Source: Botryllus schlosseri
Lineage: Eukaryota
DNA: 64,000 bases
Assembly (NCBI GenBank): GCA_051294905.1
Contig: CM119372.1
Location: 16,432,001 to 16,496,000 of the forward strand
Direction of reading: 5' to 3'
Shown: one piece after another, positions 16,429 through 64,000 of the stretch
How positions within the stretch are numbered: the first letter of the stretch is position 1
Layout of the letters: every line of letters starts with the position of its first letter
Translations under genes and position numbers: made by a program
Notes under the pieces: generated by a model
Databases searched by the model: none
What the model was told of the DNA's origin: nothing
Seen by the model: only the letters and a program-made list of their open reading frames with translations

Positions 16429-16429
16429 A

Positions 16430-17569: not shown

Positions 17570-18063
17570 CGTAACGTATAAGACGTCCCACAACTTTCTC
17601 AAAGGAAAACCAAAAAATCTTGTATTGTCTCTGTTGCGAGATCTTGTCTCATTCTAGCACGCCATTTAGGCATGCAGCTGCCTTTGCCTTCGGGGCAAGA
17701 CTGGAGATAAGCCTATATTGAAAACTTGTTAGTGTAAAGGAATCTGTGATCTATTAAGGTTTCCTCTCCTACGAAACCGGTTGTGTATTGTATGATTGTG
17801 GTTTACGGACTAGTAAGTATCGGCCCGACGATGGACAAACCTGTATATCTGGATCTATTCACCCGCTGATTGACGCTTATTACTCGCTCCCGCTGTACGC
17901 CAAATTTGAGTAGCAAGAAATCGAGTAATCACGGAGCAAGATGTTATCGCACTTAACCATTTTGGAATGAAGCATCAGGATATTTTTAAGGTTTGAACCA
18001 ATTATGCCTCGTGGACGACGTCCGAGGGTATTCTGTATAGCTGAGGACACCTATATTGTATAG

Positions 18064-19258
18064 CAGAGGTCTCAAACACGCGGCCCGCCAGAGCATTTCG
18101 TGCGGCCCGCGACGACATTTTAGATTTTAATTAATTTTACAATATATAAATGCCACATCCACGTTTTCAAAGTGAAAATTCGCTCTTAAATTGCTCCGAA
18201 AGCCTGAGACTTTTCATCAAACTGCACTATCGCGACCATGCAGTAGAAGATTCACTATTTCGCCACATTTCGGATTCATGATGATTAACCCTGATCCGAC
18301 AATAGTCCTTTACAGCACTATGCTTAGACGATTCGTGGGACTGTCGTTAGACGATTCGTGACTGACATTTGTGAGTTAGACTTGGACGCAACCTTTATTA
18401 GAATTACTCGGACTCGGGCTGACTCGATGGCAAAATGAAAATGAACCGAGTGGACTCGGAGTTACTCGGAAGTCCGTGAATTGGTTACAACCATGAACGC
18501 AACAAACTATTCGCGTGTCATCATGGGAATAGTAATAGACCAAAAGGCCGCAGCTTGGTATTTTTCTAACTAAGCAAGTAGTTATGGTAACCATTGGCAT
18601 TCTGTTAGTAACATCTTGGGTCGCTAAACCATGTTATTAAGGCCACTTGAAGGTACCGAATACCGTAGTAACAACAATGGGTTGTTCGGCGTTCCGACAT
18701 TTCTATAACTATGGCACATTTAATAATATAGTTATATTGTTATTTTTCTGCTCCAATATTCGAAGGTGTTTGATCATGAGCTTCATAACCCACTTATCAG
18801 GAGTATACCCGAATTCTGGATTGGGCTACACTGCTAAACCCCAAAAGCTGTGATATCAGATCAATCTCTATAATTAACATATTAAATTCAAAATATTCAT
18901 TGTAGCTGCAAAATTATAACGTGTTAGCTTTTATGATAAAATTATATATTTGTCCGCTCACATGGCGTCGATATCTTATAATTAATATATATCAAGTACA
19001 ACAGCACTTTAATTCAAATAGTTATAAATGTGATGATTTTTTCATGCCAGGCCTAAATTGATACAAGTGGAAATCACATTTTTATGATGTGCGTTGAATG
19101 TCAGTCTGCTGGGTCGACTTACTTTCAATAGGACAATTTCATCCCGTCAATAAAGCCTACTTGGAAAGACATGGAATCCCCCTATTGATGCTGCGGCCCG
19201 CAGCGTCGTTAAAAATTGGAAAATTGGCCCGCGAGCACATTTGAGTTTGAGACCTCTG
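18064..19258. mobile_element. hAT-type MITE (cagaggtctcaaac family)
   Basis: TIR cagaggtctcaaac/gtttgagacctctg, subterminal gcggcccgc motifs, perfect TSD ttgtatag. Confidence 0.93.
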
Positions 19259-26623: not shown

Positions 26624-27526
26624 AGGGCTCTTCAAAAATGACTTTTTTTCAAATCGTACTGGCTACTTGATAAAATTGTTAGGTTACCTAATTTAAGCCT
26701 ACACACAAAATTTAGTTCAATTCTAGCCAGTGACCGTTTTGCTACAGGAGAAGAAAGTGAAATTGTATAAAAATAAATAATAAAAAATTTGAAAATTTTC
26801 TGTTCACCCCATAAAAGTGTTAGGCTGTCTATAGAAACGATGCTCACCAAATTTGGTTCAATTCGAACCAGTGGAAGCGGAGTTAATGCCGTCGAAAAAT
26901 TTGGATTTGAATAAAATAGTATTTACGGTGAGCATAACTATAATAAATAAACAAAGAATCGGTCACCGTAAATACTATTTTATTCAAATCCAAATTTTTC
27001 GACGGCATTAACTCCGCTTCCACTGGTTGGAATTGAACCTCCCGTTGACGTTGCAGATGTGAATCATACTGCATCATACATCATACATACATCATACTAA
27101 GTTTGGTTCAATTCCAACCAGTGGAAGCGGAGTTATTGACGTCGAAAAATTTGTATTATGAATAAAATTGTATTTACTGTGACCGATTCTTTAATTATTT
27201 ATTATAATGGTGCCCACCGTAAATACTATTTTATTCAAATCCAAATTCTTCGACGGCAATAACTTCTCTTCCACTGGTTGGAATTGAACCAAATTTGATG
27301 AACATCGTTTCTATAGACAACCCAACACTTTCATGGGGTGAAGAGAAATTTTTCAAATTTTTTGTTATTTATTTTGATATGATAAATAGAAACTTTCTTC
27401 TCCTGTAGCAATGCGGCTACTGGTTGGAATTGAACCAAATTTGGTGTGTAGGCTTACATTGGGTAACCTAACAATTTTATCAAGTAGCCAGTATGATTTC
27501 AGAAAAAGTCATTTTTGAAAACCCCT
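26624..27526. mobile_element. Fold-back element with ~330-bp inverted arms and internally duplicated palindromic centre
   Basis: The left arm (ttcaaaaatgacttttt...tactggctacttgataaaattgttaggttacc) is the reverse complement of the right arm ending at 27526; ccagtggaagcggagtta / ttccactggttggaattgaacc occur twice in each orientation. Confidence 0.85.
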
Positions 27527-30374: not shown

Positions 30375-31353
30375 GCCTAGGCCAAGGTGGGTGTCTGCTC
30401 CAAAGACCACTCTGTGTCGTTTCGACACCTTCATATCTTTTCATTGTATTGCAATTTTGTGGTGTATTGAACTGATTAAAAATTGCTAATAAACCGAACT
30501 GAACTGAATCACCTCATGCCAAGTTGTACGGAGACACCTCATTCCGCGGTCCAAAAGTATATTGCTTGATATATTTAAAAAGATAGCGACCATGAACAAC
30601 AGAAAAGGATACAAAATGATTGATATATTAAAACAATAGCGACCATGAACAACAGAAAAGGATACAATATGATTAATGGAGAGGAGAGATGAAGGCCTTT
30701 GAAAATGAAGCCTTGGAGTACATTGTCGGTTATACTTTAAAGAAAGCATTTTGCCGCTTTCCACTATAATCACTGTGAAAACTCTGTGTTCTGGTGAGTT
30801 ACCTAGGTAATCATCCCTGTTATTTATGATGGAGAGGAAGGCAGGGTCGCTAAAATATCCATCTGAAGAGTACATGTATTATATGCAGCATGTATATCTG
30901 AAATTTTCAAAGGAAACTAGCAGAGCGGCTGTGAATATCCAATTTGATAGTGTAACCCATGATGTCCTAAGTGGTCAATTTTATGAGTCCATGGTACACC
31001 ATGTCTGCGATATGAGTGGTGAGGATTCAGTTGAGACCGATATAAGGGGTCTGTTCTGTTACGTCACCAAATTGATACGACTATTTTCACATAGTTTTGC
31101 AAAGAAATTATTCGAAAGGATGCATCAACGTGTGGTCACTGGTGCTGTATCTCTCCGTAGTCAGCTTTCTAATAGTCAGCTCAACGATTCGCGTCAGCTG
31201 TTCAGCGAAAATGAATTGCGTAATGCTTCTGTTGGTAAACATGGTCGTAGATTTCAGCCGCATGTAATTCGGTGGACTATTGAGCTCTTTTCGAGATCCC
31301 CATCAGCATACAAATATGTGCAAGAAACCAAAATAGTGACAATGTCATCTTAA

Positions 31354-31842
31354 AGGGGCACTGCGCTCTAAAACTGATGTGGTCTCAAATTGAAGGGCGA
31401 AACGAAAGAAAAATTTTGGCCGCAGCCGTTCTCTTCAGAACGCCACAGTAATGGAGCTGTAATGTATTGAAATTTCCAGAGTTGCAGCACGCTCCAGCAG
31501 TCACGCAGAGATCAAACTTTATATAGTTGTCAGCCGATGTTATGAAGGAAATATGTCGTACACGCCAAGGTGGTTTAGATACCGCGTTCAACGGAAGATG
31601 TCCAGTCAGGAGATTTATGTCAAAATCGGGCCTAGTGTATTCTATTTCCTTCATAACATGGGCTGACAACTATATAAAGTTCGATCTCTGCGTGACTGCT
31701 GGAGCGTGCTGCAACTCTGGAAATTTCAATACATTACAGCTCCATTACGGTGGCGTTCTAACGAAAACGGCTGCGGCCAAAATTTTTCTTTCGTTTTGCC
31801 CTTCAATTTGAGACCACGTCATTTTTAGAGCGCAGTGCCCCT
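31354..31842. mobile_element. Palindromic MITE with ~200-bp arms and TTAA TSD (Kolobok-like termini)
   Basis: ttaa|aggggcactgcgctctaaaa...ttttagagcgcagtgcccct|ttaa; near-perfect arms around a ~90-bp spacer. Confidence 0.9.
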
Positions 31843-31874
31843 TTAAAGAACCATACAAAATTACAGGTGACTAC

Positions 31875-32850
31875 TAGGGATGGTGCGAACGTGAGGTTCA
31901 CGTTCGCGTTCTGTGTGTGAACCTCAGATATTTAGAGGTTCACGCTCACAAATGAACCTCGGTAGGTTCTGCACTGTGAACCTTTTTCATGTATTACAAT
32001 TTTCACTTCATTATAACATATTTGGTTGGAATTTATTGCATTTCAACTGCGGGCCACCTCTATGCGGTGCTGGAAGCATAAAAAAATCAACACTAAACGA
32101 GCATGCATCTCGAACATCTCAAAAATTTTACTTGCTTTGTTACAAACGTTTGCTCGAAATATCCAGCTTTCCGTTTGTGAATATATAATGACTCTCTGCT
32201 GCGAGCTTGACCCGCAATCACACAACATCAAGAGCGAAATACACTATATAGATAGTCAGCGAATGATGTTTATTCAGATATTAAACCAATAACAGCATGC
32301 AACAAAGTGACTAGTAACAATTGGCCCACCGAAGGCCCATCATCATTCATTACTTGCCCCAAACTTTCGAAAACACCCCCTCCATCAACTTTACCAGTGA
32401 ATCTGCTCACATGGGCTAAGAAAGGATAAATGTTTGATGGTAATATGTAAAACTACTAATATTAATGACGAGTCTTAATTGAATCTGAAAAAATTTTCGC
32501 GCTTTGCACGACTATGAACAGTCCCATTACATGACTTGACCTCGCAGTCACCACACGCGATTTTGGTGCGTATAGTAAGCCTATAGCGATCAAAAAGATT
32601 AGTCCGGAGTTCACCGGAAATGGTCACCGACACTTTAACATGGGTATTTGGCGTCCAGCTAGTTCATTGCGACTATGCCCCGGAATGCGGCCGTAGGGTA
32701 CATCAGTAGTCGAATTGCGGCCGTGAACGGCAAAAAGGTTGGCCACCCCTGATATAGGCTATCACTTCACTGAAATGAACGGTTGGAATTAGCAATATGA
32801 CGTCACTAGACGTCATGGGGTTCACGTTCGCGTTCACACAGAACCTTTAG
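31875..32850. mobile_element. Inverted, rearranged copy of the 35154-36148 MITE family
   Basis: Starts tagggatggtgcgaacgtgaggttcacgttcgcgttc, the reverse complement of the 36148 end. Confidence 0.8.
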
Positions 32851-34356
32851 TGACGTGAGAATTAGGTGGTGAAAGGTGGAAGACTAATTGGGTTTGTGGA
32901 TTCTCCATTCAGTGAGAAATGTGAAATTGCAAGTCAAATACTGGGTAATTTATGATATATATCATGCGTCAACAATAACAATTAAATCAAGCTCAAACAT
33001 CAGAGTGAACTACGTCCGTACTATACGAAAAGAAATCACATTACCTATGGCATGGTACCCGTCTCATGCCCTGACGCCTGGGGATTTGGCATTCTACTTC
33101 TGGGACGTCCTGTATGAATGCGAAGCACGAGGCTTAAATATACATGTGGTGGTAGCTGATGGGTTGTCGGTAAACCGAAGTTTCTTCAAACTGATTGCTT
33201 CGGTGCAAAAGATTCCCCTCGAAGGCTTCTTTACCGCACCAAATCCTTATGCAGCAGATCGTCCAATATTCCTATGCTCTGATCCTCCACGTCTCATTGA
33301 GGTCTGTAATGCGTAGATCATGGATTCAGTTGATTAAATGATTCAACTTCATTCAGACGACCAGGAACTCACTTTTCTGTTCCAAGCCAGGTGGCTCGAG
33401 ATATATGAATCTGCAGGGGAAAGACATTTTGTGGGGGGATATAGTGAAACTTTATGAGCTGGAACGATCGAGTATCGCGCTTTCCCAGTCAGGAATTACC
33501 CAGGCCCATGTAAAGTTGAACCCGAGAACCAAAGTAATCTGGTGCAGTTGTATATAATCACTAGAGTAGTTGACAAGCGCCTTTCCATATAATTCCAGAC
33601 GAATGTAGGGCTCATTTCAATTTGAATACACTATTCTATTGCAGATGTATGCCAAATAACGCTGGCAAAATCATCAGAAATATCTTCAGAGGTCACTACG
33701 TTGCATTTTGAATATTCCCGATTTCACAATAACATTCAACAATAAATCCGGCAGTACTATAGTATGAATACTTAGTTACTTCCTGAAATTGGCATATACC
33801 GGTGGAAACGAAATTGAAGTGAATTACAAGGGCTAATAACATCACCATATCTACATACTAAAATGCTGCACGACACCCGCCAAGTGCTCAGCGTAACTGC
33901 TTGCCCAAGCGTGACTGCGGGAGCTGAGTATCTATCCGCATCCGCAGGTTGGTAATCTACATTCGGTCACTTCGGTGTGAAGTAGCAGGTAGTTGGCATT
34001 GTATCTGTAGGCTTGAGGTGGATGTATCCTGTCGGAATCTATGTTCAGATAGATTGGCTGGGGCATGGAAAGATCATGGGCGATGCTGCGCTAGCAGCTA
34101 GGTAGTGATATTGTCCCGTAGTTAGTCCCTCGCCTGTAGATGGCAAGGCTGCTGCTGGTGTAGGTTTAGGCCTATCTGTCGGAATATGGTTTGTATGTGC
34201 TTGTGTGTTGTGTGTAGGCCTGTGTCACGTATAGGTATAGGTCGTATGTTTCCGTTATCAGTTTGTTTGTATGTGTCGCTATGTATTTTGAGTATATTAG
34301 TTTAGTATGAAACGCCGTTTTGAGTACTGTGCCGTGGAATACAATCTTATTATAAC

Positions 34357-38618: not shown

Positions 38619-41600
38619 ACCGTGACAGTACTGGGCGTGAGCGATCAGCGCGAATCCATTATACAAGTGAGTGTTTTCGAAACTAAATACGTCCTCTAAG
38701 AGTATGGATTGATCATGCATAATTAAAACAATGGAGTTGGGAATTTTGACCGGATTCGGATTGGTACGGATTTGCCCCTTTTTAAATCCAGATTGACATC
38801 GGGCCTTTGAGACCAAAATGTCTATAACTATATGTATATATTCTTGAACTTCTGTCTGATATATCCAAGTCGGGTACAACTCTAATATGGAGTTGCATGC
38901 GGTCAGGGTTTCACTGGACCATCGGATACGCAAGTCAATAATTTTGAGATTTTCAATAGTTCACATTATTACACATAGCAAAAATATTATTTACTTTTCG
39001 ATCGCAAATTCCTGCTACACTCAATATTTCCCGTGGTTTAGGAGATGTCTATTTTGCAGTGAAATGTATGCATGAATGGCGGCATATCGCCGATTCACCA
39101 GAAAGCTACGATTTGCCTCTAGTGACACGTTTTTTGTTGTGGTCGTTTTCTTTCGGTTATTGTGCTCGTCAGACACATAACCGGTATTCAAAAGTAATAA
39201 AATAAGTACTTCAGTAGGTAATTATACATCAATCACGATATTGCCAATGACAGGAATTGGAAATTTCCGTTCCTGTTCCCAGTATATTTTCAAGACTTTA
39301 GAATTTGAGAGAAAGGGATAATAAATAGTAAGAAAATTTGCGCGATCGCCACTATCCAATAAAACGCACGCTTTGTTTCGAAATTACAGTTTTCAAATTA
39401 CACTGGAAAGCGTCTCTGTTGATAATGAAGGTATAGCGGAATGCTTCTGTCCCGAACTACAGTTTGATTCTGGTGACAGAGATATATCTAAACTTTGCAA
39501 CTATGTAGTCTAAATCTGCAATCAACCCAATGCATGTCTTGCTTTGACGGAGATATGTGACATTCATGTTTAGCGCTACGGAATTGGGTGGATGCTTTAA
39601 AAGTAAGTGCACGCCTATATCGATATAATGGCAACATTGGCAACTATGTCGGTTATTGAAATGTCGTTGGTATGTCAGCACAATATTGCAGAAACGCTGG
39701 CATACAGTGGTATCGTAACGCTTCAAAGGTTATTCCAATTATTGAATACAACTATTGGCCGATGTTGCTACTAAAAAATTTCGTTGGGATCGTCATCAAA
39801 AAGGCAGCGTTAAAAGTTTCAAAATATCAAGCTATAGTCAAGACACGTCTCGTAACGCTGTGATTGTTGAATCATATAAACTAAATAATAGCATTGGGTA
39901 CAGACCCATATATCGAGCATTATCACAAAGTGCAATGAAAAGGTACGGGCGCAAAATTGTAATCATTAATGTGATTTGAAACTGGCATTATATTCTTTAT
40001 TGTCGCATAGAATGTACTGTACACATAGAAACTTTTCTCAAAATTTATGCTGTTTTGAAGTCTCCAGGAGTGATACTCGACTTAGCCCGAAGCTTAATAC
40101 TCGATTCAGGATCGAATCACGCAGGTACTCGATTTCGCCCAGCCCCAATTACCATCAAACACTTATCCTTCCTCAGTAAATGTGATCTGATTTAGCGGTA
40201 GAGTTGTTGGAGGAACGTAACTATAGAACAAATTTTGGAAGAAATGGAAACTGGCGACTTAGAAAAACTCGGACTAAAATCAAATTTAAGAAAATTCCTG
40301 ACATTTGGGCATATTTTAGGATTTCTCCGGACGCAGTTTTAACACCACAATTAGGACATGTCCAGGAAAACTCAGACATATGGCAGCGCTAACCTAATGT
40401 TGATAAACTCTCCACAGCATTCGCCAATCTCAGGTCGATTGACAACATAAAAATAGAAGCAACATTGCAATAGAACTGTATAGGTGTTTTAAAGTTCAAC
40501 ACAACTGAAATGTGTGAAACGGTCGCTTGAACATTGTTCTGGCGGTATAGGGCACCAACGATTTCTGATCATTTGTCAGAGCTTCAGGAAACCTTATTTT
40601 GAGTGACATGCTGCTCGGAGAACCGATCTAGGCCACTGATTTAGGGTATCAAGCCGCCCACACACGTGGAAATAGCATTCCCGCAAAGCGACACGCAGTA
40701 TGGTCATTGGTCACGCGACGTTAAATGATAAATCACAGCTCTCACTTGCCAACTACGAAGTACCTTCTCATAGACCAGAGTTCGCAGGTTTTAAAATCAA
40801 ATTTGCTCAAGCGAACAATCGCTCGGCGAAATTAGCCATTGTTCTGATCATTGTGTTGCGGCGCTCCCATTGTCGGAACAATACCGATTTTTAGACTTCG
40901 AGGGCTGTTTTGGGGTGGTTCCGTGGCCCGGACCAGATTTCAACTTATGTTTTCGGAATCAGCGCGACAGTAACTTTCGATTAAGACCAGTTATATTACC
41001 TTTTAGCTCCAGCTATAGCACTACCAAGTACGCTGCTTATAATAGATTGCTGAGCAGTTAACAACACTGCTTCCTCGTGCGTAACGACGGGAGTTGCGTA
41101 TCTATCAGTTCAGTAGGTTAGTAATCTATACATAGACTGCAACTATAGATATTGTACAGTACAATCTCTATACTACAACTCACGTGATTATGATTGTGGT
41201 GCCCAAAAACAATCGTCAGGTCATTTCGCCGCCAATGTTGTCATATTATGTAATATTCGATTCAGGTTGAAGTATATGTGCTGCACGATCCTTCTTTCGC
41301 GTCTGTATTTACCGCGGATACCGCAGATGCAAACGTCGTCAAATTAATTCGAAAACATGTTTTATGCGCGTATCTTAGGTTATCGCTATAGAAAATCGAC
41401 TCTTAACCTTCCGCGGAACATTCAGATTACTGGTGCCCAACATCAACTGTGCATCAACAGAGTGTTAAAGGAACATTGCAACTAAGTGTGACTTTTGCTC
41501 TTCCCTCTTAGATACCAGTTCAGAAATGCGAGGCTTCTACTTGAGAAGTGTCTTAGTATTGTTTGGCAACAGCGTGATACCAATTGCTTAATTACAAATG

Positions 41601-41960
41601 AGCTTATAAGTGTAATGAATAGAATTGGCATTTAAGAAGGAAATGGTTTCGATTTCGAACTACAACCTCTCCTGTGTACATACACCCCCCTCCACACAAC
41701 GCACCACCACAGCATAATGACCAACTACATATGATGACCAAGGCGGGCATATCAAAAGCAAAGCGTACCAAAAAGAAAAGAGACATTACGACATTCATTA
41801 TCATGACGCAAATGACCTGACCAGGCGATGAGCGCCAGACATTGTTCAATAAAATAAAACCCTGACAAAAGGACATAGCAAGTGGAAGTTAACAGATTTG
41901 TAACATATTCTATATCTGGTGTTCCTTTACTTGAGTAACGCTGGAAATGTGACGCTACTA

Positions 41961-42942
41961 TAGGATTACCATATTTTGTGGCTCAAATTCCGGACACTCT
42001 TTAGCGCCTACTAGCGTTTTTTGTAAAATGAGGTATGAATACATTGTCTGTCCATATGACGTCACACTATCAAAGCTGTATTAGACAGCCTTGCTAAATA
42101 ATGTTGGGTCGGTGCATTTATGTAGTTGTGTGTTGTAACCAGTACCAAAACAACATTTTTCAGCCCCCTCCTCTTGGCCCACCATACGGTAAACTTCTGA
42201 GGGGCTTACTATATGTATATGGTTTCCAGATGCATCTGGTTGTTAAATTTTGTTAATGAATTCTGTCAATAATATTGTTTCTTTCATATATATAATTTTG
42301 ATCCTTTCTCCGCCCTATCGGAGTAACTGGTAGAGCTGGTGGGAGATGATGACTTCGAAATACAGGGAGCGTAATTGCACATCGTTAAGTCTTGTTCATG
42401 TATCATTCGTATAAGACTATTTATGAGCAGAAATCACGGTCCGCACCAGCAGGATGCACATTCGGTGGTTTCCATCCTGTTACGGTCGTGACTCCATTTC
42501 CAATGTTCCATGGCCAAGCTCCCAATTTGTAAAGCTGATTAATAAAAAACGGTCAGCACCTTTGCCCAGACTTACTCATGGCCTGTTTTGGAAGCTGTTT
42601 ACGTTCAACACCTCCCCCGATCCCCAGAACAAAGGCAAAAGACCCTCATGGTTTAGAACCACTGTCCTTGACTAAAGCATCCAAACGGCCTCAACCGACT
42701 CTAGCAATATACTCGTTATCTTACAATTACGATTACAATGAGACCGATTTCAGTAAATGATGGTTGTTTATATTTATTTTCGATTGCATCTTTTGCGAAC
42801 GCGGTTGACCCCATATCACACTCAACCTATATGTGACACTAAATCGCGGACATTTAGGCATATTTTTAATTTCCTCGTGGATGCAGGTTGAACAGTAAAA
42901 TTCCGGACATGTTCGGAAAATTCCGGACGCATGGCAACCCTA
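41961..42942. mobile_element. hAT-type MITE (tagggttgcca / ttccggac family)
   Basis: Imperfect TIR taggattaccat/atggcaacccta; perfect TSD cgctacta. Confidence 0.88.
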
Positions 42943-43175
42943 CGCTACTATAGAGTTGACTCCAAAAGAAAGGGTTGATGTCCCAGCGGTTACTATATAC
43001 TTCGGCTACGCATACTCGACAGGAAATTAGAATTGGCCATTCGGTCAACGTGAAACTGGTCAACGTGAAATCTCACAGGACTTTTAAATTATGACATATT
43101 TTTCATTATACGGATAGCATATAGGCATATTACGGCTACTTTGTGTGGCGGCAAAAGCCAAAGACATCAGTGAAA

Positions 43176-43451
43176 ATGAGTGTACAGGTGTCCGTCTACG
43201 TCGAATACTGTCGCAGCTGAGGTTACGAAGTATTCTTCGCTGCGCTTAAGGCCGCGATGAAGAATGATCTTCCGAACATTCGGGTCACTGGTAATGTCGG
43301 TCGGCTTGGTTCATATGAATTGTGCATTAATGGGGAATTAATCTACTCAAAGTTGCAAACGGACGATTCCCCAGCCGACAAAGATGTCGTCGACGCTATC
43401 AGGCATTTTTGCAATCGAGGGAAGGTCATTCCTGTTGATGAATGCCAGTAA
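43176..43451 (+). CDS. Intronless Rdx-family selenoprotein (SelW2/MIEN1-like), 91 aa, with in-frame TGA (Sec) at 43218-43220
   Basis: MSVQVSVYVEYCRSUGYEVFFAALKAAMKNDLPNIRVTGNVGRLGSYELCINGELIYSKLQTDDSPADKDVVDAIRHFCNRGKVIPVDECQ. It has the VEYCxxUGY motif and G.(F/Y)E..ING.L..SKL; the ATG is in frame with the annotated 43257-43451 ORF. Confidence 0.88.
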
Positions 43452-43650
43452 ACAACGGCGCCGTATCCTTGCGTGACAAGCCAATGCTTTAATGTGACTT
43501 CGTTTCTGACTTTGGTAATGTGGACGTATCTCAATTAAATCGCATAGCACAGATCAGTACCGTTGTCCACTTGCAGACCACATGCTATGCCTATTGCACG
43601 TTAAAGTATAGCAAGTACTGGAACCTTTTTATGTAGTCATTAGTCATCAC

Positions 43651-44531
43651 TTGAGCGATTTTTTTGACATGTCAAAATTTTGTCAAAATGGTAGCGTTAG
43701 GTCAAAAAATATCAAAATTTACTACAAAGTCAAAAAATTTTTGCAACCTGCATTTCGTTTGTATCGTATATTTTGCATTGTCGGTGAATTTATCATTTGA
43801 CACTTTACAGTTTGTAGCCTACTTTATAGGCCTACCGTTGTAGACGGCCCACGGTCTGCTCATTGTGAAGCATAAACAATAAACATTCAAAGGTAACAAA
43901 TAGGTTGACATGGTGTTATGCTCAACATACCGCAATATCGTAACGTAACTGAAGCAAGACTGCGTGGGCATTGAATGGTTCTTATTTCAAGAAGCGCATG
44001 ATGAAAAGTTGTGATGTAGACACCATCGCTTGAATTAAGCAACACGGTGTGTCACCAGCAGTGTACGCACAACTTCAGTGTTGTCAGCCAACAACTGCTG
44101 CTGTTGAACGTTCTCTCTCCATTCTTGGCAAACCACTTAGTAAGGACAGACAGTTTCTACCCAGGAATGTAGCAAAATATCTTTCACTGTACTACAACAA
44201 ATTTTAATTATTTTTACCTTAATACGTGATGTAACTACTGGAATTCTTCATAGGACAAGATTTCGTTAAAATAAAGTTTTTTCATGCAATAATTTGTCAG
44301 TTTTTAGTCAAAAAAGTTTTTTCAGGCCAAACTACCACGTAAGGACAGACAGTTCAAACCAGAAATGAAGATAAGTAGGCTAGTACAATTTTAACATTAT
44401 GTGCGAAAACACCTAATTTGCTTACCTTAGGTCAAAATTTGATGAAAATTAAGTTTTTCCAGGTCAAAAAATGTCGAAATTAATATTTTTAGATCAAAAT
44501 CTTCCGTTTTTAGGTCAAAAAAATCGCCCTA
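43651..44531 (+). mobile_element. Deleted hAT element retaining the transposase C-terminal dimerisation region
   Basis: TIR gcgatttttttgac/gtcaaaaaaatcgc; perfect TSD gtcatcac; ~44050-44207 reads SPAVYAQLQCCQPTTAAVERSLSILGKPLSKDRQFLPRNVAKYLSLYYNKF*. Confidence 0.88.
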
Positions 44532-45499
44532 GTCATCACCAGGGATCTGGAAATGTATTCTGTTTCATCATTATTGTCGCGTTTGATACGAGACGCGTCT
44601 ACAACATGTAATCCTTATTAGTCCTGTAGAATTTTCGGTCAACCTAGAAAAAATTCTTATAAAGACGTATTATATACCGTTGGAAAGATAATTTTATCAG
44701 CTTTTCAATGATGGATTTCGTCACTTTTTTTACCTTGGGGAAAAAAAGTTATGACCAAAAACGTGCCAGGAGATAAAGCGCTATTTTGCCTAACATTAAA
44801 ATACAATTATAAGCTAAAATACGATACCTTCGTATCAGAATACAACACCATAAATTGGAATATCACCCCCAGTAAAGCAAACTAACAATCGAACAGGAAA
44901 ACAATGAAACATAACTTTATTTAAGAAGTATTTATCATGCGTTAAGGGGGCAAAAGTTGACCGAGACGGAGATAACACTGGTTTACAAATTTCGAAAAAA
45001 AACTAGCGTCGAAAATTTCAATGATTGATTTAGGCTAATTTATGGTTGCTGAATCCAATTCTGTGCTAATAATTTCTCCATCACGTCAGATTTTTTCCGT
45101 ATCACTTTTTCTCATTTTCATAAATTAATCAAATTTCAGCTTTCGTTAGTGACATCACGGTTAGCATACAATAGCAACAATTCAAATATTGTTATTGAAA
45201 TCATCTATCATGAAACATGGGTTGTTGTAATACAGAATGAGTGAGTTTTTGGTGAACTTGAATACAGTGATTCTCTATCATCGTTCAATCAGAAGCTCTT
45301 TTCGACCCATAAAATTACACTGGTACACAAATTCAAAAACCCACACCAAATACCATATTGGAACAGAGGCAGAGATGTTTTTAAATGGTATCGAGGCTTT
45401 TTGTTTGTGTTTTGCAATATTAACGCTAATTCTATATACAAAAAGCTTTTCATTTTTGACGGTTTCTGATTTTCCGTAATATTTTACTATGAACTGGAG

Positions 45500-46342
45500 C
45501 AGTGGTTCTCAATCTTTTTGTATTCGCGGACCCCTTTTGGACCCCGCTCCCCCCGAAGTTTTAGTTCAAATTTAGCTCAATTATCGTACAATCGTCATCT
45601 GTCTTGTACAGATGATAACTGTAGGCTAGTGATAAACAGCAACAAAATTACTTTTCTTGAAAATAACAGCATTCTATTTATGTAGAAATCGGGTTGACTT
45701 TTATTATTTCAAAGCTAATTATTCAACTGCTTTTTTCAAATACGTGGTCGTGTCTTAAAAATCTGCAGCTTCGATTTCATATCAGCGAGTGCTAAAATCC
45801 ATTTAGACAAATAAAGGTGGTGGCGAATGTAATAATAAGGCAAAACGCTTCTGACGACACATTTGGGTATGATCGGAACAATGATGATACCAAAATTGAC
45901 AAACTATTTAATATTGAACATATAACGTCAAGCCTGTTAATTTATAACTAGCAGCTCATCTTGAAGTTATTATGGAAATGGTTATGTAGACCTATATATC
46001 GCAGGAGAAAACGGATTTTTGCGAGCATTTCAAAGTCTCCGTGATTGACTTTACTTATCCAACCATTAATTGTTAAACAATGCCCAGCAAACACCTCTAC
46101 ACAGCCAAATATTTGTATCAGTGGGCTATTGGAAATTTAGCAACTAAAATGAGTCCACACAGCAGGATATTCCATCTCAGAGGGCCATCCTGTTGATGTG
46201 AGTTCTACTGTAATGAAGCAAAACTGCCTCGGGATTTTCCTAATTTGAAAAATATAAATTAGGTTATCAACTATTTTGTAAATCCACTTCCCTTCGTGGA
46301 CCCCCTGAAAATGCTTCACAGACCCCCTGTTGAGAACCACTG
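45500..46342. mobile_element. hAT-type MITE, relative of 19706-20624
   Basis: TIR cagtggttctcaa/ttgagaaccactg; TSD aactggag/aactagag. Confidence 0.88.
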
Positions 46343-47692
46343 AACTAGAGTTTGTAGAAGTGATTGGCATTGCTACTCAAGTAGCACAAGTAACTCCCTA
46401 TATTTTCTACTCACTTAGCAGTATAAGTAGTAATTTTTAAGACACGTGAAAACTACTTCAAGTGGCAGAAATATCTAGGTAAATTTGGTCGGGGGGAGGG
46501 TGGTTGCATACTTTCGACAGTTAGTCGGAGGTGGCTATATACGAAATCGCAACATGTATCTTCTCGGCTAACGCAAAATGTTTATAATGACACAATACCC
46601 ATTGGTAGAATATACGAAAATATATTCAGTTACCGCGCTTTAGGGGCTGTTAAGGCTACTACATTTATGAAATCATAGGCAGCCAACATCGTCGCGGAGC
46701 GGAGCTTTGTTTGGAATACATTCGTGTTAAAATGAATAACTGGGTGCAGTACCAAATTCAATGTGGGCAGATATCTCCATGACATTCCCAGTTGATTTAC
46801 TAGTCACGCAAAGCACTAAAACAAAACCCAATACAATTATTTTCCCGTATTGCCAATCACAGATAAGAATTCAGATTGCGTACATCTGGTTCGAAGCACA
46901 TGGTATGAACCCTTCCCCAATGGCTGTTATAACAGCCTTGATTTGACTACGAATATACCACATGCAATTAATATCTATATATGCGATTGAAGCGCAAAAT
47001 ATTTCCAATAGTAAAATCTCAACCAGAAAACAGCAACCGGACTTTGACCTCTTACCAGGACCGTAACTGCCGCACCCCAAATCGTCTAATTGGGGGTCGC
47101 GATCTCGAAGGGGACCCGAAAGTCTGTCGGTGAATGTACATAAATTATTTATACATCACTTATCGAAAATTTATGCAACTCTTTTCAATTTTTTTCGCGC
47201 TGGTCGCGATTTCATGTTGCCGAATTTTTGATTATTAAGTACCCTTCCCCCAGAAAAAAGCATGATTTATAGTAAATAAAAATAGGCATTTCGGCGTCGA
47301 CCATCACCACGCCGCGATGCACGAAATCATACGAAGTATATTTGCTAATATGGTACTCTGAAAAGTGTGCCAATATATCGCCTGCGAGAAAACCTTAGCC
47401 GAAAAGGATTGCCCTTATGTTGACCATGAACTTCGAAATAAATATAAGCCTATCTAATTATCCATAGCTGCCTAAGTGGCTCGTGTCTAATTATTCTATC
47501 ATGGCAATCTGAGCCCCACAGATCAAATACCATTTCTCAGAGAAGAATTATTTGCCAGTGAAGATCTACCAATTTTCGATAAAGCCACCATAAAAGTTTC
47601 TTGGATCTCGCATGGCTTCTCAATAAATTACGTGATGATGTGTGGATGTACATAATTCAGTTTCAAAGCATGACCAATTATAGTGTCCAAAG

Positions 47693-48089
47693 TAGGGTTG
47701 CATTTAAAACAAACGGTGTTTTGAAATACAAAATTGTATTTTTTCAAGTTATAAAATTATGCCATAATTGTGTAAATACTTTCCAAAAACATGCTGTATG
47801 AGCACACGGACAATTACTACCAAATCTAGCCGACGTATATCGTTATGGGATGGTTGGAAGTGGAACCCTCAAAATAGTCGGTTCAACAGTTGTACTATAG
47901 ATATTTTGTCAAAGGGGCTACATTTACCCTATATTTTCGATGGTCAATTTCAATCCATTATGACGTCGCAATTGAATATTCGTGATGTCATGGCTTAAAA
48001 TCAAAAAGCAATAAAAAACATGTTTTAAATTAGGGCCTTGTTTTAAACAAGTTTGTTTTTAATTGATTTTTGTTTTAAATGCAACCCTA
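47693..48089. mobile_element. hAT-type MITE, inverted relative of 38200-38618
   Basis: TIR tagggttgcatttaaaacaaa/tttgttttaaatgcaacccta. Confidence 0.88.
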
Positions 48090-50455
48090 GTATAAAAGGT
48101 GTGTGGTACTATCATTCAGAAATAAGCTCCCGAATGACACAGTGAATCACCAGTCCGATAGCCGTTTCTACACTTAACACAAATTGCTGCTTCTTTTTGA
48201 CTAAGCACTATCTAAAAAAAAACAAGCAAGGTAAATGAAACAGACCATAGTAAGTAAACAATAGCATAATGAAGTTATAACGAACAACGATAGCTCTACT
48301 TGAGTCCTTCACCCCACCCCCCATCCCCCTCTCTTGCTCACTCTTACTCCCTGAAACAGATACATAAATCGATTTTTATTTTCATATATTCGTTTTGCAT
48401 CTATATCCTGCTTTTCTGTTGATAATTCATTAGTTTATAGCCTTTTCTTCATATTTTTATGTTAATATTTTCCCTAAGTTGGATTTTTACCCTTTAGCAC
48501 GTTTTTGGTCATAACTTTTTTCCCCAAGGTAAAAAAAGTGACAAAACCTGTCATTGAAAAGCTGGTAAAATTATCTTTCCAACAGTAATACGTCTTTATA
48601 AGAATTTTTTCTAGGTTGACCCATTTTTAGACCAAATTCTACAGGACTATATTTTATAACAGGGCTGTGCAACGTTATTTAAGTTTTGATGTTTTTCGCC
48701 TTGTGTTATCCCACTTTGTAAAAGCTCAGACATGCCAGACTGAGCTAAATTGGGAACCTATTTCCCATATCAAATTGACACTTTCTTCGTGTATTTGTCC
48801 TTTCTGCTTAGGCGGCATATGCACCGACTCGTGTAGCCTAGCAACTACCTGATACACATACACACGATCTGTGCATACAGGCTTATGTTACACACAAATT
48901 GTTGGTTATTTAACGTTATTTTGTACATAATTACTCAAGTTTTTCAGTGCATAAGCATTTGCGATCGCTATTTTAAGTTCAATTGGGTATTTCATGACGG
49001 CATCGTTGCAAATCGCTACTCCAGCGATACCCGAGACTATAACATACTCAGTTTAAAGCCTATCTTGCGCATTAAAATAGCACTTGCAAAAACTCGCGCA
49101 GATACTTTATTGTCAGCGTGTTGCTATGAAGGAATGACAGAGAAGGGACTCGAATTCGGGAGCGTAGATCAGCGATTAAATAAAAAAAAAGAGATCCAAA
49201 AAACCGATTCGATATATATGAATGAGTGCCTTTGCTAATTTGAGATTTGTATGCTACGTTGCGATTTGAGACACTTCTGTTTATTGGCCAGTACTCAAAG
49301 AACCCACGTTTTTTAGTATATGTCATTAGATTTCTTAGTTTTAATACCGGTACCCCTCCTGAAAAAATAAAAATGTAAAAAGTAGAAATATGCAGAATAT
49401 ACAGAATCGAGGGAGAGCGGTATATTCTTAGTGTTACTTGAGGCTGTCGAAGGCCGATGGGATGCCTACATCTGGGGATGTGCACATTGCACACCGGCAT
49501 TTCGGCACCAGCAGGCCTACACATGAAGACCTGCATGCTACGTTCAGCTTCCACCTCTACTTAACATTTTGGAACAAATTACTCATGTTTTACCCTTTTG
49601 ATTTTGAAAAGTAGAAGGGATAAATTTGCATAAATTGTAGGAGGGGAATTTTTCTAACAACTCAGTGAAATGGCCCCTGTACCACATAGCTCAATATACT
49701 TACGAAGATATAGCCTAGCCCCTATTTGTAGTGTCATGTCTCATTAATCATTTGCATTGGTCACGACCCCGCTATCAAATCTATCTGTTGAAACGGTACG
49801 TACTAAAGTAGACCTATGATTTGATATTTCCATTTGAAGTAGTCTGACTATGTCCTGGGAATCGCTACTTCTGTACTTGTTATTGAGTAGAAATTTGCTG
49901 AATTATTGCTACTTCTATTAGGGTACCAACGTTGACTTGATTACTATGACCATATCTCGGTATATATCTTTTATTTTGTTGTAATAGAATGAATCAACAG
50001 ACACAAACGTAATAACATAAAGTTACTTTCCTTCCTAAAGCACGATATAACTACTGTGTGCCTAACCAATTACGTCACTTTCAGGGATCAGAGGAGACTG
50101 GGGGTACGGTTGCGCATGAAAAGATTTGGGAACGAAAATTGTTTTCTCCACCCAACTTTGGTCGTCAAGCTGAGATCACCCCATATACGTTACCCCAATT
50201 CAATTCTGATTTGAGTCTCCACATAGCAAAACAATAGACAACCACGGTATAGATCAGACGTGATATTGTTCGGTTGTAGATGGTATTGAAATGCAAAGCA
50301 AACAGTAACATTGGAAATTATTAGGCAAGAGTTGAAATATCCTTTCCACAAATCGTAAATCAATTACTCATGACTACGTTTTGTTTTCAAGATGGAGAGC
50401 AATAATATCAAGAATTTCAATTTCGCGCTGATCGTGGTCTGTTTGTTACGTCACT

Positions 50456-53400
50456 CTATACCACTACGTCTTCATCTTCTTCTTCCACAGTAGTGACAGC
50501 GACTGTGATTTGACCGGCGGAGAACCAGTTCTCTCTGGGATTGTCTTCGTCAGTGACCAAATAATCAAGGCTGAAATGGACCTGTAAAACGTAACAGTAG
50601 ACAAATATGAGAGATGTGGAAATCTCTATTAACCGCATGGGTGCGTAAACATTTTTTATACGGGCCAACTACAAAAAAAACTGCCGAGGCCAGGGTTGAC
50701 ATAATCACACGTGATTGCCATGATAAGTATTTGAGGTGTGGATGAACAAAAATTAATAAAACTTATAACATGACATCACGGATTCATTGGGACCCAAGTG
50801 CAAAATTGTGGGATGGCATAAAATGGCCTTTTCCTCGCACTCCCTGGTTATGCCAGTTACTAATATATGCGCATTTTACTAAGGTCTCTCATTTCTACTA
50901 CCAATTGGTATTACACTTTACTAAGCCAACCCTGAAATTGCATAGGATCGGTACTTTCATATCTCGCCGCTCTTACACATGTAGGCCTACTATTGCTACT
51001 GTTGGTCATAGAAACAGAGAAATCCTTAAATTAATTTCGAAGGCTGACTTTGAGGATGCAATTTCAGTGGATAATTCCTCTAACCACTTTTCCATTGACC
51101 GCCATAATCTAATGTTGGAATTGCAAAGTCGAACATATATTAGCTGAAGAGCAGTCATGCGCAGACCGTTTTCAGAACTTTCTGTGGGCTGAGCAAAATT
51201 GACTCGCAGGCTGCGATTGTCCGACGGGTAGTAGTTTTGACACCCTTGAGTTATAGTAGATCACTTACTTCCTTCTGGTCATCGACACCCTGTTCGTTGA
51301 CGAATCCAGTTACAACATGGGTAAGACCGTCATCGGAGCTGGTGATTTCCCATCTGCTGTCAGCACCGGTGATCTAGAGGAATAATTCAGAAGCTGCAGT
51401 AAGCGGCAGACAGAGGGATAGGACCCAACGAACTTACGTTAAATCGAGCTACGGGTGATGGGAGGGTGATGGTCAAAGCGTCACCTTGGTGGTATCCAGG
51501 TCGGTAGAAAACGTTGCTGCTGGCTTCTTTGACTTCATCGTTTTGTGGGAAAGAGTAGACAGACACTGTAGACAGGTGATAATATTAATATTGGTGCTAT
51601 GTATTCGTTTCGAAATATCGCCGTGTTCATGATTATGGGATAGAATAGGCCTAACCGCAATCTTTCAGTTATATTCCAAAGCGACCATGTTGATATTTGT
51701 TGAGATATGTTGTCCAAATTGGTTCACGGCAAAACAGAATTTGGCTGTATTCAGTTCAGGGGTTTGGAGAAGCAGCTAAAACTTGTGAATGTGAGCAACA
51801 TCGAAAATCATTGGGCATGGACACCTACGCTAAACGTGTTCCTATTCGCGAACCATTCACAGTTGCATAATTTCGATCTCAGATGCTATAATCCGCAATT
51901 TGCCGTGGTATTACTTACACTCAGCAACGTCAAGGGGATCACAGCTGAACTCAACATCGGTAGCGTTGAAGAGAGCTCCTCGGCCGCAGTACACAAGAAC
52001 TCTCAAAGTTCCGTTCTCCATTTCCCATCCCGCTGGGGCGGCGACTGTGTATCGCCCTTCCACTGGGTTGGTGCCGTCACCGGTAACAATGTGTCCGTTC
52101 AATACCTAAGGTAAGTAAAATATTATATGAAGTGCGCAGGTAACGGATGAACACCGTTTGTTGTATCTAATTCCCGTATTTTACAGCTTTGATTAACTCC
52201 GATCGTTGCCGCTTTTAGAATTTGTGATGGCATTAATAGACTTTGAACTTGAGCTTGGATGATTCAATTCAATTACTCTTATGGGCTTGCACTGATCTCT
52301 GATGAAAGTAACAGAACCGGTTTTTCATCGGATTAGTTTAGCACTGATCGCAAAGAAGGTAGACCACTATTCCTCTAGTTAAATAGTATATTCATATTGA
52401 AATGAACCCGAATATTTTCGGCTGACACTCGTCAGGGGTAATCGTCAGCAACTAGTAGAGAATTGGAAAGAACATTGTATATCAACAATCGTATCACAAA
52501 ATATGACGTCACCAGCATGAAATTTCGAATGAGAGAGCGTTCAATGTACTATTTTTAGGTGATACACGAACTCCTTTTGTTGACAGAGTTTTGGTTGGTG
52601 TATTTTGATAAAAGTTGATTCCAAGGCACACAAATGGAATTGTGAACGGCCTCGACCTACGATTCGAAATCGGTCGTCTCGATAATTATTCGCACAAATC
52701 GGATTATCCAACAGATGTTTGCCGATGGCAGAATTAATTGCCTTTGATCGATCCGCATCAATCTTAAGTGGATGAGTTAAGGGTGAGCTTTTCACATCGC
52801 GTGACGCACGTGTTCTGATAAATCTGGGGACATGTTGGTTTATGCGGTCCTGCAGACGTCTTGACGTTCTTCCCACGTAGCCACAATCACAGTGGCACCT
52901 ATATTCGTACACTACATTACTTTGTTGAAGTGCAGGAAGCACGTCTTTGCGTGTTGAAGGGAGCAGTTGTGTTGTTGTAAAAATCACATTGGTTTTGACT
53001 GTATCGTAACATTTACCGACAGCAGAAATCAATTGTTTTTCAAAGCGGGTGGAAATGGGGCCAATCCAAGGTAGATGGATATAAACATCTTTTATTGTTC
53101 GTGCGGTGGGCTCTGTTCGTTTTTCTGCGTTGAATTGCGTTAATTTCCTCTCCATGCCGCGGCTGATGACGTGTTCAGGGTAACCGTTATCAAGTAAGAT
53201 TTTTCGGATGTGGTCAAGTTCTAAACTCAGTTTGTTACCCGAACATATCATCAACGCTCTATGCACGAGTGTGCCTATGAGGTTAATTTTTCTGCGCCGA
53301 GGACTAAATGAATTCCAGCGAAGGTATTGGCCTGTGAATGTCGGTTTTCTGAAAACAGACGTTTCAAATTTGTTGGTATTGCGCTTTTCAACTAATACGT

Positions 53401-54254
53401 CCAGAAATGATAATGAGTTATTGCGTTCTTTTTCTATTGTGAATTGCAAGGCCGGGTGAAGCGAGTTTAAGCGAATGAGAAATTGGTCACACTCCGATTC
53501 ATTCCTGAAAATGACAAATGTATCATCTACGTATCGGCGGTACAATAGTGGTTTGGCGGACTCACGCTGGGACAGAAGCTCGCCCTCGTAATACCCTACG
53601 AAAATGTTGGCCAAAATAGGTCCCAGGGGACTTCCCATGGCTAAGCCGTCTATTTGACGAGTGTCAGCCGAAAATATTCGGGTTCATTTCAATATGAATA
53701 TACTATTTAATTGTATATTGAAGTTCTGTACCTCCAAGAAGCTATTCCTCTAGTGTCAAATACTTTGCGAAATTCAAAGCCTTTTACAACATATTTCTCC
53801 ATGATGGGAATGAATCATGACTCATGATACTAGATACCTTTTTCTAATTTTACTTCCTCTCTTTTCTCACAAATTCAACTGAAACCACTCTACTCACATG
53901 GAAAAGAACAGCGGGTTCTGGGAGATTAAAATAGCAGCTTCCTTCTTCGACATTGCTGTACACGAATCCAGCCAAGAATCCACCATTAGTGTCCTCGTTT
54001 TCGGGCCATTTTTCCTCTCCAACAACTGAAAACAAGGTACTCAATCTTCGTATGATGTATAACAATATGCGGAGGGAGGTTAAAATAGCCTAAATTCGAT
54101 GTGGATTATTTCGCTGACTAGCCTATAATATATATATATAGGAAGAAAAATTCACGAAATAGGAACATATCCGATGCTTACCTGGAGAATCCAGATCTAC
54201 ATCTTCCTGGGCGTATGCAAAAGCAAACAGGGCTAAGAGAACAATGTACTTCAT
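50456..54254 (-). CDS. Secreted acidic 248-aa protein, copy B. Coding exons 54254-54182, 54025-53898, 52105-51919, 51565-51438, 51373-51269, 50581-50456
   Basis: Same exon lengths (73,128,187,128,105,126) and splice sites as copy A; open frame; about 10 aa differences counted by hand. Confidence 0.93.
52380..53741 (-). mobile_element. 5'-truncated Penelope-like retroelement (RT C-terminal half + GIY-YIG endonuclease) with inverted pLTR fragment
   Basis: Uninterrupted ORF 53638-52541 with (GLA)MGSPLGP, RYVDDTF, FLDVLV and NVVYEYRC.C...YVGRT.R.L..RI.QH; 56-bp inverted repeat 52379-52434/53655-53710; TSD ctattcctctagt (52367-52379, 53742-53754); empty site in copy A. Confidence 0.95.
52406..52439 (-). 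ncRNA. Minimal type I hammerhead ribozyme in the Penelope pLTR
   Basis: Minus strand accc-CUGACGA-G-ugucagc-C-GAAA-AUAU-UC-gggu: complete core, stem I accc/gggu, 1-bp stem II, palindromic AAUAUU stem III, UUC cleavage triplet. Confidence 0.82.
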
Positions 54255-54542
54255 CTTTATATCTGAAAGCAATGAACCTGATAAATGATTTGAGCAGTAT
54301 TCTAAATCGATAGCAGTAAAACTGAATAGCCGATATCAATTAGTACTCCATTTGCCATTTACTCCTGAAAGTAGGCTACAGGCTATATAGCGTATTAGAT
54401 GCAGAACCAGTAATTCTCATGACATATAAATCCGATCTGTACTTCGCAATTCATCATAGAATTCAATTTACCTGTAATTATGACTTTTTCCTAAGGATCC
54501 AAAGATAAGCTCCGAACTGTATTTTTCAATACTCGGCCTGAC

Positions 54543-54602
54543 CTGTGCTTCTTGTGGAAGAGGAATCTGTGAGAAGACAGATCTGCGATCGCCGTATTTA
54601 TA
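54543..54602 (-). promoter_or_regulatory. Putative TATA box and non-coding first exon of copy B
   Basis: Minus strand tataaat at 54596-54602 and a conserved cag|gtcagg donor. Confidence 0.58.
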
Positions 54603-55100
54603 CGTAACGTAAGAAGGCCCACAACTTTTTCAAAGGAAAACCAAAAAATCTTGTATTCTCTCTGTTACGAGATCTTGTCTCCAGCGAGCACGCCATTTAG
54701 GCATGTAGCTGCCGTTGCCTTCGGGGCAAGACTGGAGATAAGCCTATAATAAAAACTTTGTCCGTGTAAAGGAATCTGTGATCTATTAAGGTTTCCTCTC
54801 ACTACGAAACCGGTTGCGTATTGCTTCATTGTGGTTTACGGACTGGTAAGTGTCGGCCCGACGTTGGACAAACCTGTAAATCTGCATCCCTTCACCCGCG
54901 GATTGACGCTTATTACTGGCTCCCACTATGTACGCAAAATTTGAGTATCAAGAAATCGAGTAATCATGGAACAAGATTTCATCACATTGAACCATTTTGA
55001 TGTGAATGATAAGGATATTTCAAATCTTTAAACCACTTATGCCTCGTGAACGACGTCCGAGGGTGTATTTTATAGCCGAGGACATCTCCATTGCATACAG

Positions 55101-56282
55101 CAGGGGTCGCCAACTCAAAATTGGTCGCGGGCCACTTTTCCAAATTCCTAGAGGCCGCGGGCCGCATGACATCAATAACGAGATAAAAGTAGGCAACGCA
55201 GTTCAACAACCACGTCTGATAACTCTATGTTAATACAATGCTGTGGTCTCTAACATGGGCGACGGTTATAGTCACCACAAAAGAAATAATATTTTATCGA
55301 ACAAACACAAATTAAACAAAAAGTATCATGATCATCAATTTCATTATATTTTGAACTATGAGCTGTACACAATACCTGACAACACTCTGTAGCCGCTAAA
55401 ACAGGGGTGGCCAACATTTTGGCTATTTACGGCCGCATTTCGATTACCCATGTAGCCTGCGGCCGCATACCGGTGGTTAGTCGTGATAAACTAGCTGGGC
55501 CAAATACCCTCGTTAAACTGTCCATGTCCATTGCCGGTACACTCCGAACTAATCTATTTACGCATATCGGCTTGCTATGCGCACCGAAATCGTTAGTAGT
55601 TATGTTTTAAAGCGCCACCAGAAAGCGTTCTGTAATCGCGCCAGGCGCGAAAAATTTTTCATGCTCATGAGTGAATTTCGTTAATAAATATTAGTACAGT
55701 TTCACATATTACTATAAAATATTTATCTTTTCTCGTCCAATATGATCAGATTCACCGATAGAGCTGATCCAGGATGTATCTTCGAAAACTTAGGGTAGTT
55801 AATAAAAGTGTCGAGTGTCGACAGCCGCATAATTTCCCTTCTACTGCGGCGGATTGGCCACCCCTGGATTAAATAATCAATATTGGGGTTAGCTAGACAC
55901 GGTAGGCCTACTTGCTAGGCAACTATCTCCTCGTAAAGCATGGTCTTTTGAGGAGCCCGAAGTCGTATTTCCGGCGTCTCGGTCTTGGCAGGGGTGAGCC
56001 ATTGCACGTCAAGGCAATGTGCCCATTCGTACAAGCAAATTCTTCATCCACGGAATGACATTACCATGCCAAAGCCGTATCAACTAGTCAGGGATAGTGA
56101 TATTGGGCACAGTAAAATTATTTTGAACAACAACAACATGATGTTTCAACTGAAATCAATTTCAGCGTTTCAGAATGATTTACTAAGCGTTTTTCTGAAA
56201 TTTTTTCAAATCAGGTGGCGGGCCGCAAAATAGGACCTTGCGGGCCGCATGCGGCCCGCGGGCCGCGTGTTGGTGACCCCTG
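55101..56282. mobile_element. hAT-type MITE (caggggtcgccaac) with nested caggggtggccaa element (~55402-55866)
   Basis: TIR caggggtcgccaac/gttggtgacccctg; perfect TSD gcatacag. Confidence 0.92.
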
Positions 56283-63212: not shown

Positions 63213-64000
63213 CTGCAGTAGACACCAAACACCAATTACAGCGAGATGTCGAGTAAGTATCCGATTTTTGAATAGATATATATTATGATATATTCGGCCG
63301 ATATTCAAAGGATATGGCATCTAGTTTAAGGCGATTATCCCAAACTTCAGAGGATTTATTTGAATTGCTATTGCTATGCTTGGACAAAACGTAAACTAGA
63401 AAGGGTCGCATCTGGACGCATGTAAGCTATAATAAATATATCAATATTCCCAGTCTAACAGTCGCAGATTTATAGGTCTCCCACTCCATACTAACATGTT
63501 GTGACGTCACCAACACTACCGATATGTCTGTCAAAGTCCGGTACCAACTGGACATTATTGGCGAAATAATCGGTCGGTCTCTAGTCAGAGCCACCGCAGA
63601 ATGTTGGCGTGGAAAAGCACAGTGGAAAATTCAATAACAGCGCGCTGCGTACGCCATAAGATATACAACATTTATAGCCCGTGCCGGCTAATTAAGAGGT
63701 GTCACTTGAATTCAAACTTCGCTGAGAGCATTCGACTACTTTCGCGACGTTTTTTTTTCAATGTCGCAATATGACGCTTCAGAACTACGGAATCGACAAA
63801 CTAACGAATAAATGAATGGTTAATAAATGTCAGCAGCCGTGTCACAATCAGTCAGCGGATAAAATAGGAATTCGCGATGTCGCGGAAGAGTCCGGCGTGT
63901 AACTTAATCAGCTTTGATGCGACGCAAGAGTAAGATAAGCCTGAGCATTAGCGGCAATCCAAACGGCAAAGCGCAGAACACGAAGAAAGAAACTATAGGC

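Follow-up and report, generated by a model that had tools for sequence, protein, structure and literature searches.

A SELENOW2-type reading frame of Botryllus schlosseri that may be a decaying duplicate uncoupled from its SECIS by transposons

The window, the whole 64-kb stretch of Botryllus schlosseri DNA that was analysed, contains a locus that we read, at a probability of about 0.55, as a decaying DNA-level duplicate of a SELENOW2-type gene that has been uncoupled from its SECIS. SelW and MIEN1 are small thioredoxin-fold thiol/selenol oxidoreductases with a CxxU centre, in which the UGA codon is recoded by a SECIS in the 3' UTR. An earlier note on this DNA had left the choice between a paralogue with an atypical SECIS and a decaying retrocopy. 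Decay appears the likelier side of that choice; no atypical SECIS has to be invoked, as a canonical-looking one is present 5.5 kb downstream, on the far side of two insertions, and a retrocopy is unsupported, because the ORF of Ciona SelW1 is likewise intronless, the locus lies within a DNA-level duplication, and sequence shared with the other copy (copy A) is found between the ORF and the SECIS. Neither the Rdx family nor the recoding mechanism is new; the new fact is the displaced SECIS.

The reading frame encodes a protein of the Rdx family

The reading frame runs on the plus strand from an ATG at 43176 to a TAA (43176-43451) and gives 91 amino acids when its in-frame TGA, codon 15 (43218-43220), is taken as Sec. 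As the earlier note had described, MSVQVSVYVEYCRS-TGA-GY is continuous in frame from this ATG with the remaining ORF, the C-terminus is ECQ followed by the TAA at 43451, and the ORF is complete without any intron. The C-R-S-U motif occupies 43209-43220 (+), as judged from the frame and the MIEN1 alignment, and an expressed relative has G at 43212, giving Gly for Arg. The TGA does fall at the Sec position, since it is aligned to the second Cys in the CxxC of MIEN1 and also to the Cys or Sec of homologues. The call of an Rdx family member was borne out as well: an Rdx HMM match, named beforehand as the test of this call, was found above both curated cut-offs, with 50.3 bits for PF10262 (cutoff 22.6, E 2.7e-13) and 56 bits for TIGR02174 (cutoff 34.2). 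When the 91-aa protein was searched against PDB sequences, the best match was MIEN1 (2ljk, E 1.1e-16), while SelW (2npb) gave E 0.005, and the named matches in the similarity comparison include arthropod MIEN1. The protein has CxxU/CxxC after the first strand. Its AlphaFold2 model, built on a 30-row alignment (pLDDT 85.3), has a thioredoxin-like Rdx fold, and the top Foldseek matches of this model were all SelW-like (TM 0.72-0.80). The ORF and its Rdx membership are far beyond chance. Judged by sequence, the protein is closest to the SELENOW2/MIEN1 branch, nearer to MIEN1/SelW2 than to SelW1; we typed the ORF from the profiles, the PDB sequence comparison and the model. According to one report, the invertebrate members of the group belong to the SELENOW2 branch (PMC13134290).

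Among database proteins of 50-160 aa, none had three 5-residue words in common with the 91-aa protein; its identity to 142 cluster representatives was 48% at most, and no ascidian SelW sequence was found in the direct homologue, cluster and metagenome searches. The metagenome scan gave five loci, of which two are Rdx genes of bacterial appearance and three are short matches due to chance, and no SECIS. Since the best sequence matches are eukaryotic and MIEN1-like, horizontal transfer from bacteria was dismissed. No second copy of the gene was found within the 64-kb window. Against an HMM set of 87 members, chosen by similarity to the query and thus biased in its favour, the ORF core scored 93.5 bits (leave-one-out median 89.2), 52 of the 87 members scored no higher, and 33 of the 87 have, as the ORF product does, at least two deviations at conserved columns. 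Arg at position 13 is present in some homologues, so it would not be damaging by itself.

The protein departs from its family at Ser65 and at the C-terminus

DSP had been pointed out at a site where the family has xFP, and the alignment agreed: at the position of Ser65 (codon 43368-43370, +), Phe is found in 118 of 136 aligned homologues and Ser in none. F65S is a radical change, which suggests decay. It was also correct that a full CaaX box is absent, the ORF product ending in ECQ-stop; such a box is common but not universal in the family, because 33 of 87 complete members of the HMM set end in CxxX. In these members the Cys stands 27-33 residues after Pro66, and comparison of the spacing led to a near-CaaX sequence, R-I-L-A-stop, in the +1 frame of the ORF (43462-43476, +), 30 residues after Pro66. 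It is possible that this is a relic of the old C-terminus; in the control for a near-CaaX at the family spacing, a pattern defined post hoc, 19 of 4000 cases had one under strict and 93 of 4000 under loose terms.

Two origins of the altered C-terminus were considered. A premature stop, with in-frame C-V-T-S beyond the TAA and its Cys 33 residues after Pro66, would require two changes, and so would a frameshift, which the reads do not support: over 43176-43500, the best 12 of 23 rows of RNA reads, 7-read single-run rows included, contain no indel. Splicing to 48811 or 48947 did not restore a CaaX box in the frames that were read by eye.

Insertions have lengthened the 3' region

The ORF lies in an island of 692 bp (42951-43642) between two insertions that had both been called hAT. 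The island stands, and each flank has an 8-bp duplication. The upstream DNA-transposon-like element (41961-42942, strand not assigned) has the target duplication CGCTACTA at 41953-41960 and 42943-42950. The hAT-like element in the 3' UTR, of 881 bp (43651-44531, strand not assigned), does begin about 200 bp past the stop, after a proximal UTR of 43452-43642, and has the 8-bp duplication GTCATCAC at 43643-43650 and 44532-44539. This duplication and short terminal inverted repeats define its label; the sole remnant frame tested (43944-44204), which we take to resemble a hAT C-terminal domain, had no match in Pfam. Two AATAAA (43878 and 44270) lie within the element. A 79-nt piece follows (44540-44618, +), probably UTR, to which RNA reads of run X7 align with 5' parts that do not fit the element end, and then an element of 4031 bp (44619-48649, strand not assigned) with nested repeats, five AATAAA and terminal inverted repeats of about 150 bp that are 86% alike. 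All seven AATAAA between the stop and the SECIS are in the insertions. At present the UGA is 5776 nt and the stop about 5.5 kb from the SECIS; with both insertions (0.9 and 4.0 kb) removed, these distances become 856 nt and 623 nt. For mammals, a UGA-SECIS distance of 872 on average and 207-5207 in range is given in PMC3316567.

Other repeats were seen elsewhere in the window. Transposase remnants (PF21787, weak) at 30811-33316 are split by a 204-nt inverted-repeat pair (31350-31846), and nested long inverted repeats at 26624-27526 form a fold-back element, whose MIR841 match in Rfam (90.8 bits, curated 200) is probably a hairpin artefact. A tandem array of about 200-nt units occupies 1127-2639, with 8 copies that are 72-83% alike to the reference copy.

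A canonical-looking SECIS lies beyond the insertions

The statement that there is no textbook SECIS holds for 43452-43650 and for the empty site, but not for 48986-49043 (+), where a canonical-looking element was found. Rfam detected no SECIS in 43100-45200 or 43440-43660, and a descriptor scan of the first 200 nt of the UTR and of the reconstructed empty site (hAT-like element removed) gave nothing SECIS-like, so that by these scans the proximal 3' UTR (43452-43642, +; X7 depth about 16-17) has no SECIS. Even the closest local matches to a SECIS carried 2 core mismatches, and 39 of 40 shuffled sequences did at least as well. Two hairpins, one just after the UGA (z -1.01) and one at 43506-43557 (z -0.19), had no extra stability compared with shuffles.

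The candidate at 48986-49043 is of type I and has an intact AUGA/AAA/GA core: AUGAC (48994-48998) is followed by an 11-nt helix arm, AAA (49010-49012), a short loop and the 3' GA (49033-49034), and 9 of 10 helix-II pairs are formed. It matched the full RF00031 model (1-64) with 23 bits, below the curated Rfam gathering score of 35 (E 6 over 4227 families, about 0.0014 for one family), and was the sole SECIS among 14 Rfam matches on both strands of the whole 64 kb. Its SECIS fold has -8.2 kcal/mol compared with -13.2 for the minimum-energy fold (z -0.87), and a strict SECIS descriptor found 7 matches in 128 kb, 2 of them with nine pairs. No other selenoprotein family was found in the 57 plus-strand frames of at least 55 aa within 36.1-49.2 kb when TGA was read as Sec. 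We infer that the element belongs to the SELENOW2-type gene, of which it is probably the present or former SECIS.

A candidate acceptor-like site (48926-48947, +) ends 47 nt upstream of the SECIS core, another ends at 48811, and poly(A)-signal candidates are located 3' of the SECIS at 49071-49184 (+; ATTAAA at 49071 and 49175, AATAAA at 49179). The SECIS block was possibly inserted later, because it is missing from the duplicate copy A. By eye, a B-box-like motif was seen on the minus strand beside an A-rich run at 49100-49200, and part of the SECIS block could be a SINE-like insertion. No tRNA genes were found in the 64-kb window.

The locus is part of a segmental duplication

The locus lies in copy B (39903-55114, +) of a colinear duplication; in the other copy, copy A (5916-18077), the gene block and most of the SECIS block are missing. 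Over 6060 columns, the copies have 626 mismatches and 84 gap openings (about 10% diverged), a divergence of similar size to that between the RNA reads and the window. They stand about 34-41 kb apart, each with its own insertions, and may be a tandem-placed divergent haplotype. A 380-aa reverse-transcriptase frame (PF00078; 52379-53710), presumably Penelope-like, with perfect 56-nt inverted repeats at its bounds, is present in copy B only.

Nothing of the 7.2-kb gene block is found in copy A, which keeps about 70-90 nt between the gene and SECIS blocks. Since 48871-48936, between the ORF and the SECIS, is common to copy A, a single retro-insertion after the duplication would not fit. Copy A also carries a 5'-truncated element exactly at the gene-block gap, so deletion from A fits better than insertion into B. 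The SELENOW2-type gene is probably older than the duplication, a point against a recent retro-insertion. When neutral decay since the duplication was simulated, the ORF and the SECIS core were both intact in about 7% of 20000 simulations.

RNA reads point to an expressed relative

Four of the 24 listed RNA runs were aligned to 41701-45300 at 88% likeness, with 3-43% of the reads of each run. The ORF was covered in one of the four, X7 (unstranded library), whose depth was 0.2 at 43021-43140 and then 26.6, 37.6, 17.2 and 16.2 over 43141-43620; the similarity of the reads starts about 35 nt 5' of the ATG. X3 gave six short fits only, of about 45 nt around the motif. The single-cell run X1 had depth 0 on the ORF, and its depth dips are no finding; X12, with 0 reads aligned, is no test. 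Position 43212 was G in 31 of 31 X7 reads and 6 of 6 X3 reads, giving CGSU in place of CRSU, and the C of the window was found in none. In all, 40 of the 530 letter differences between reads and window were covered individually.

Downstream of the hAT-like element, the alignments of 38 X7 reads begin at 44550; the loose letters of these reads, a median of 67, do not fit the element end. Read by eye, their 30-letter consensus agrees at 13 of 18 letters with the target duplication and the sequence following it; its next 11 letters, aligned without gaps, do not distinguish the empty left flank from the element end (6/11 each), but with one gap they agree with the left flank at 9/10. No joint to the left flank was listed for these 38 reads. 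Of all 1196 aligned X7 reads, 688 are 90-95% alike to the window, mostly transposon reads. The simplest reading is that the X7 and X3 reads come from an expressed relative that differs by about 5-12% and has no hAT within its UTR at this site. This relative could be a paralogue, or an orthologue in a diverged lineage that carries the same species name. In it the UTR on both sides of the hAT looks exonic, because RNA there is near the depth of the ORF.

The last four exons of DNAJC10/ERdj5 lie at 60860-63221 (-) in the window. They are 86-88% identical to a protein whose nearest named relative comes from Styela clava (70%), ahead of Clavelina, Phallusia and Ciona, and the exons themselves gave this order too, which places the host among the stolidobranch ascidians. 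Comparison with a protein 80-88% alike to these exons did not discriminate the lineage of the RNA runs.

Discussion

The preferred reading, a decaying duplicate, suggests the following course. In the ancestral gene copy, the SECIS at 48986-49043 would most likely have lain about 620 nt past the stop. The UTR would then have received two DNA transposons, of 0.9 kb and 4.0 kb, which brought seven AATAAA with them, and through early polyadenylation transcripts would probably end 5' of the SECIS. In an mRNA that ends within the transposons, translation would terminate at the UGA, codon 15, and yield 14 residues. The ORF as it stands, if translated with Sec, would give a small cytosolic CxxU thiol/selenol oxidoreductase like SelW/MIEN1, of the modelled fold and without the lipid anchor. 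Another copy of the duplicated region would supply the RNA that is seen, while the window copy, having lost its function, would be drifting. F65S, the absent CaaX with its near-CaaX in the +1 frame, the broken UTR and the lack of any read with the window letter suggest decay; the normal core score, the approximately 7% neutral survival and the absence of indels among the best 12 of 23 ORF-read rows suggest function. SELENOW2 is often lost, with 13 independent losses in ray-finned fishes described in PMC13134290.

An ordinary working SELENOW2 gene is a lesser but serious possibility. The transposons would then lie in a 3'-UTR intron (acceptor 48811 or 48947) or in a long UTR that is read through, Sec would be inserted, the read differences would reflect a diverged lineage or a paralogue, and CaaX loss and F65S would be tolerated. 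This would agree with an ORF, a UGA and a SECIS core that are all intact, as expected in about 7% under neutral decay, with a typical core HMM score, with a model of pLDDT 85 and Rdx fold, and with the acceptor-like candidate located 47 nt upstream of the SECIS core. A spliced route to the SECIS is possible because acceptor-like sites are present and because mammalian SelW has its SECIS in a separate last exon, as do SelV, SelH, SelT and TR3 (PMC3316567); as context, PMC12448946 describes a botryllid species complex in which heterozygosity is 3.63%. Against a working gene, both stretches flanking the hAT look exonic in the expressed relative, the window letter at 43212 occurs in no read, F65S is radical, and seven AATAAA stand en route. 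It seems unlikely that the window copy itself is alive and inserts Sec despite 4.9 kb of nested transposons, whether through a new 3'-UTR intron or a SECIS acting 5.8 kb from the UGA; the latter distance would exceed the mammalian maximum of 5207 nt in PMC3316567. If the copy were alive, a non-prenylated SELENOW2 variant would be turned on or off by transposon poly(A) sites competing with a distal SECIS exon.

We regard it as highly improbable that the locus is a processed retrocopy whose parent contained introns and which was non-functional at once or soon afterwards, with a distant SECIS that is there by chance or is unrelated. The missing introns, the read similarity beginning about 35 nt before the ATG and the six X3 reads that fit only about 45 nt around the motif would suit it, as would the SelW retro-pseudogenes that are common in mammals according to PMC3316567. 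However, the whole ORF of Ciona SelW1 is in one exon (PMC2874816), inspection and the comparison of copies A and B gave no poly(A) tract or bracketing target duplication, marks which may have decayed if old, and the 5'-truncated element at the gap of copy A fits deletion from A. Only the faintest chance is left for read-through of the UGA without a canonical SECIS, by an atypical SECIS nearby or a hairpin in the coding region. One possible hairpin directly follows the UGA and another spans 43506-43557, but their stability does not exceed that of shuffles (z -1.01 and -0.19), the local SECIS-like patterns with 2 core mismatches were matched or beaten by 39 of 40 shuffles, and a canonical candidate exists downstream.

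The locus adds a SELENOW2-type member to the little-studied ascidian selenoproteome; in the search made, the literature on Botryllus and selenoproteins concerned SPS evolution only. It also points to a practical trap, in that a SECIS may lie beyond a short search window in transposon-rich genomes. If the duplicate is indeed decaying as we propose, it would be a natural example of transposons disabling a selenoprotein gene by uncoupling its UGA from an intact SECIS; among the titles and abstract starts searched, with partial coverage of the literature, none describing such uncoupling was found.

Compared with known systems, the locus resembles the SELENOW2/MIEN1 (Rdx12, C17orf37) branch in its best PDB match, its fold and the Sec-type UGA that SELENOW2 also has. 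According to PMC3527542, MIEN1 carries a prenyl group at CVIL, is bound to the membrane via its CaaX and is redox-active at -225 mV, whereas the window gene has no CaaX, has Ser for the conserved Phe before Pro66, and has its SECIS 5.8 kb from the UGA. SelW1 of Ciona intestinalis, compared by gene structure only, is an ascidian SelW-family gene with a single-exon ORF, so the lack of introns is not unusual; as described in PMC2874816, the whole ORF is in one exon, an intron lies in the 3' UTR and two SECIS are in the ORF exon, whereas the window candidate is 5.5 kb past the stop. Selenoprotein pseudogenes, SelW included, can keep an intact-looking ORF with UGA while recoding is disabled (PMC3316567), and in a human SelS variant that loses its SECIS by splicing the UGA is read as a stop (PMC3628699). 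In contrast to these, the SECIS of the window, neither mutated nor spliced out, appears intact and has been moved away by nested DNA transposons, and the copy is a DNA-level one.
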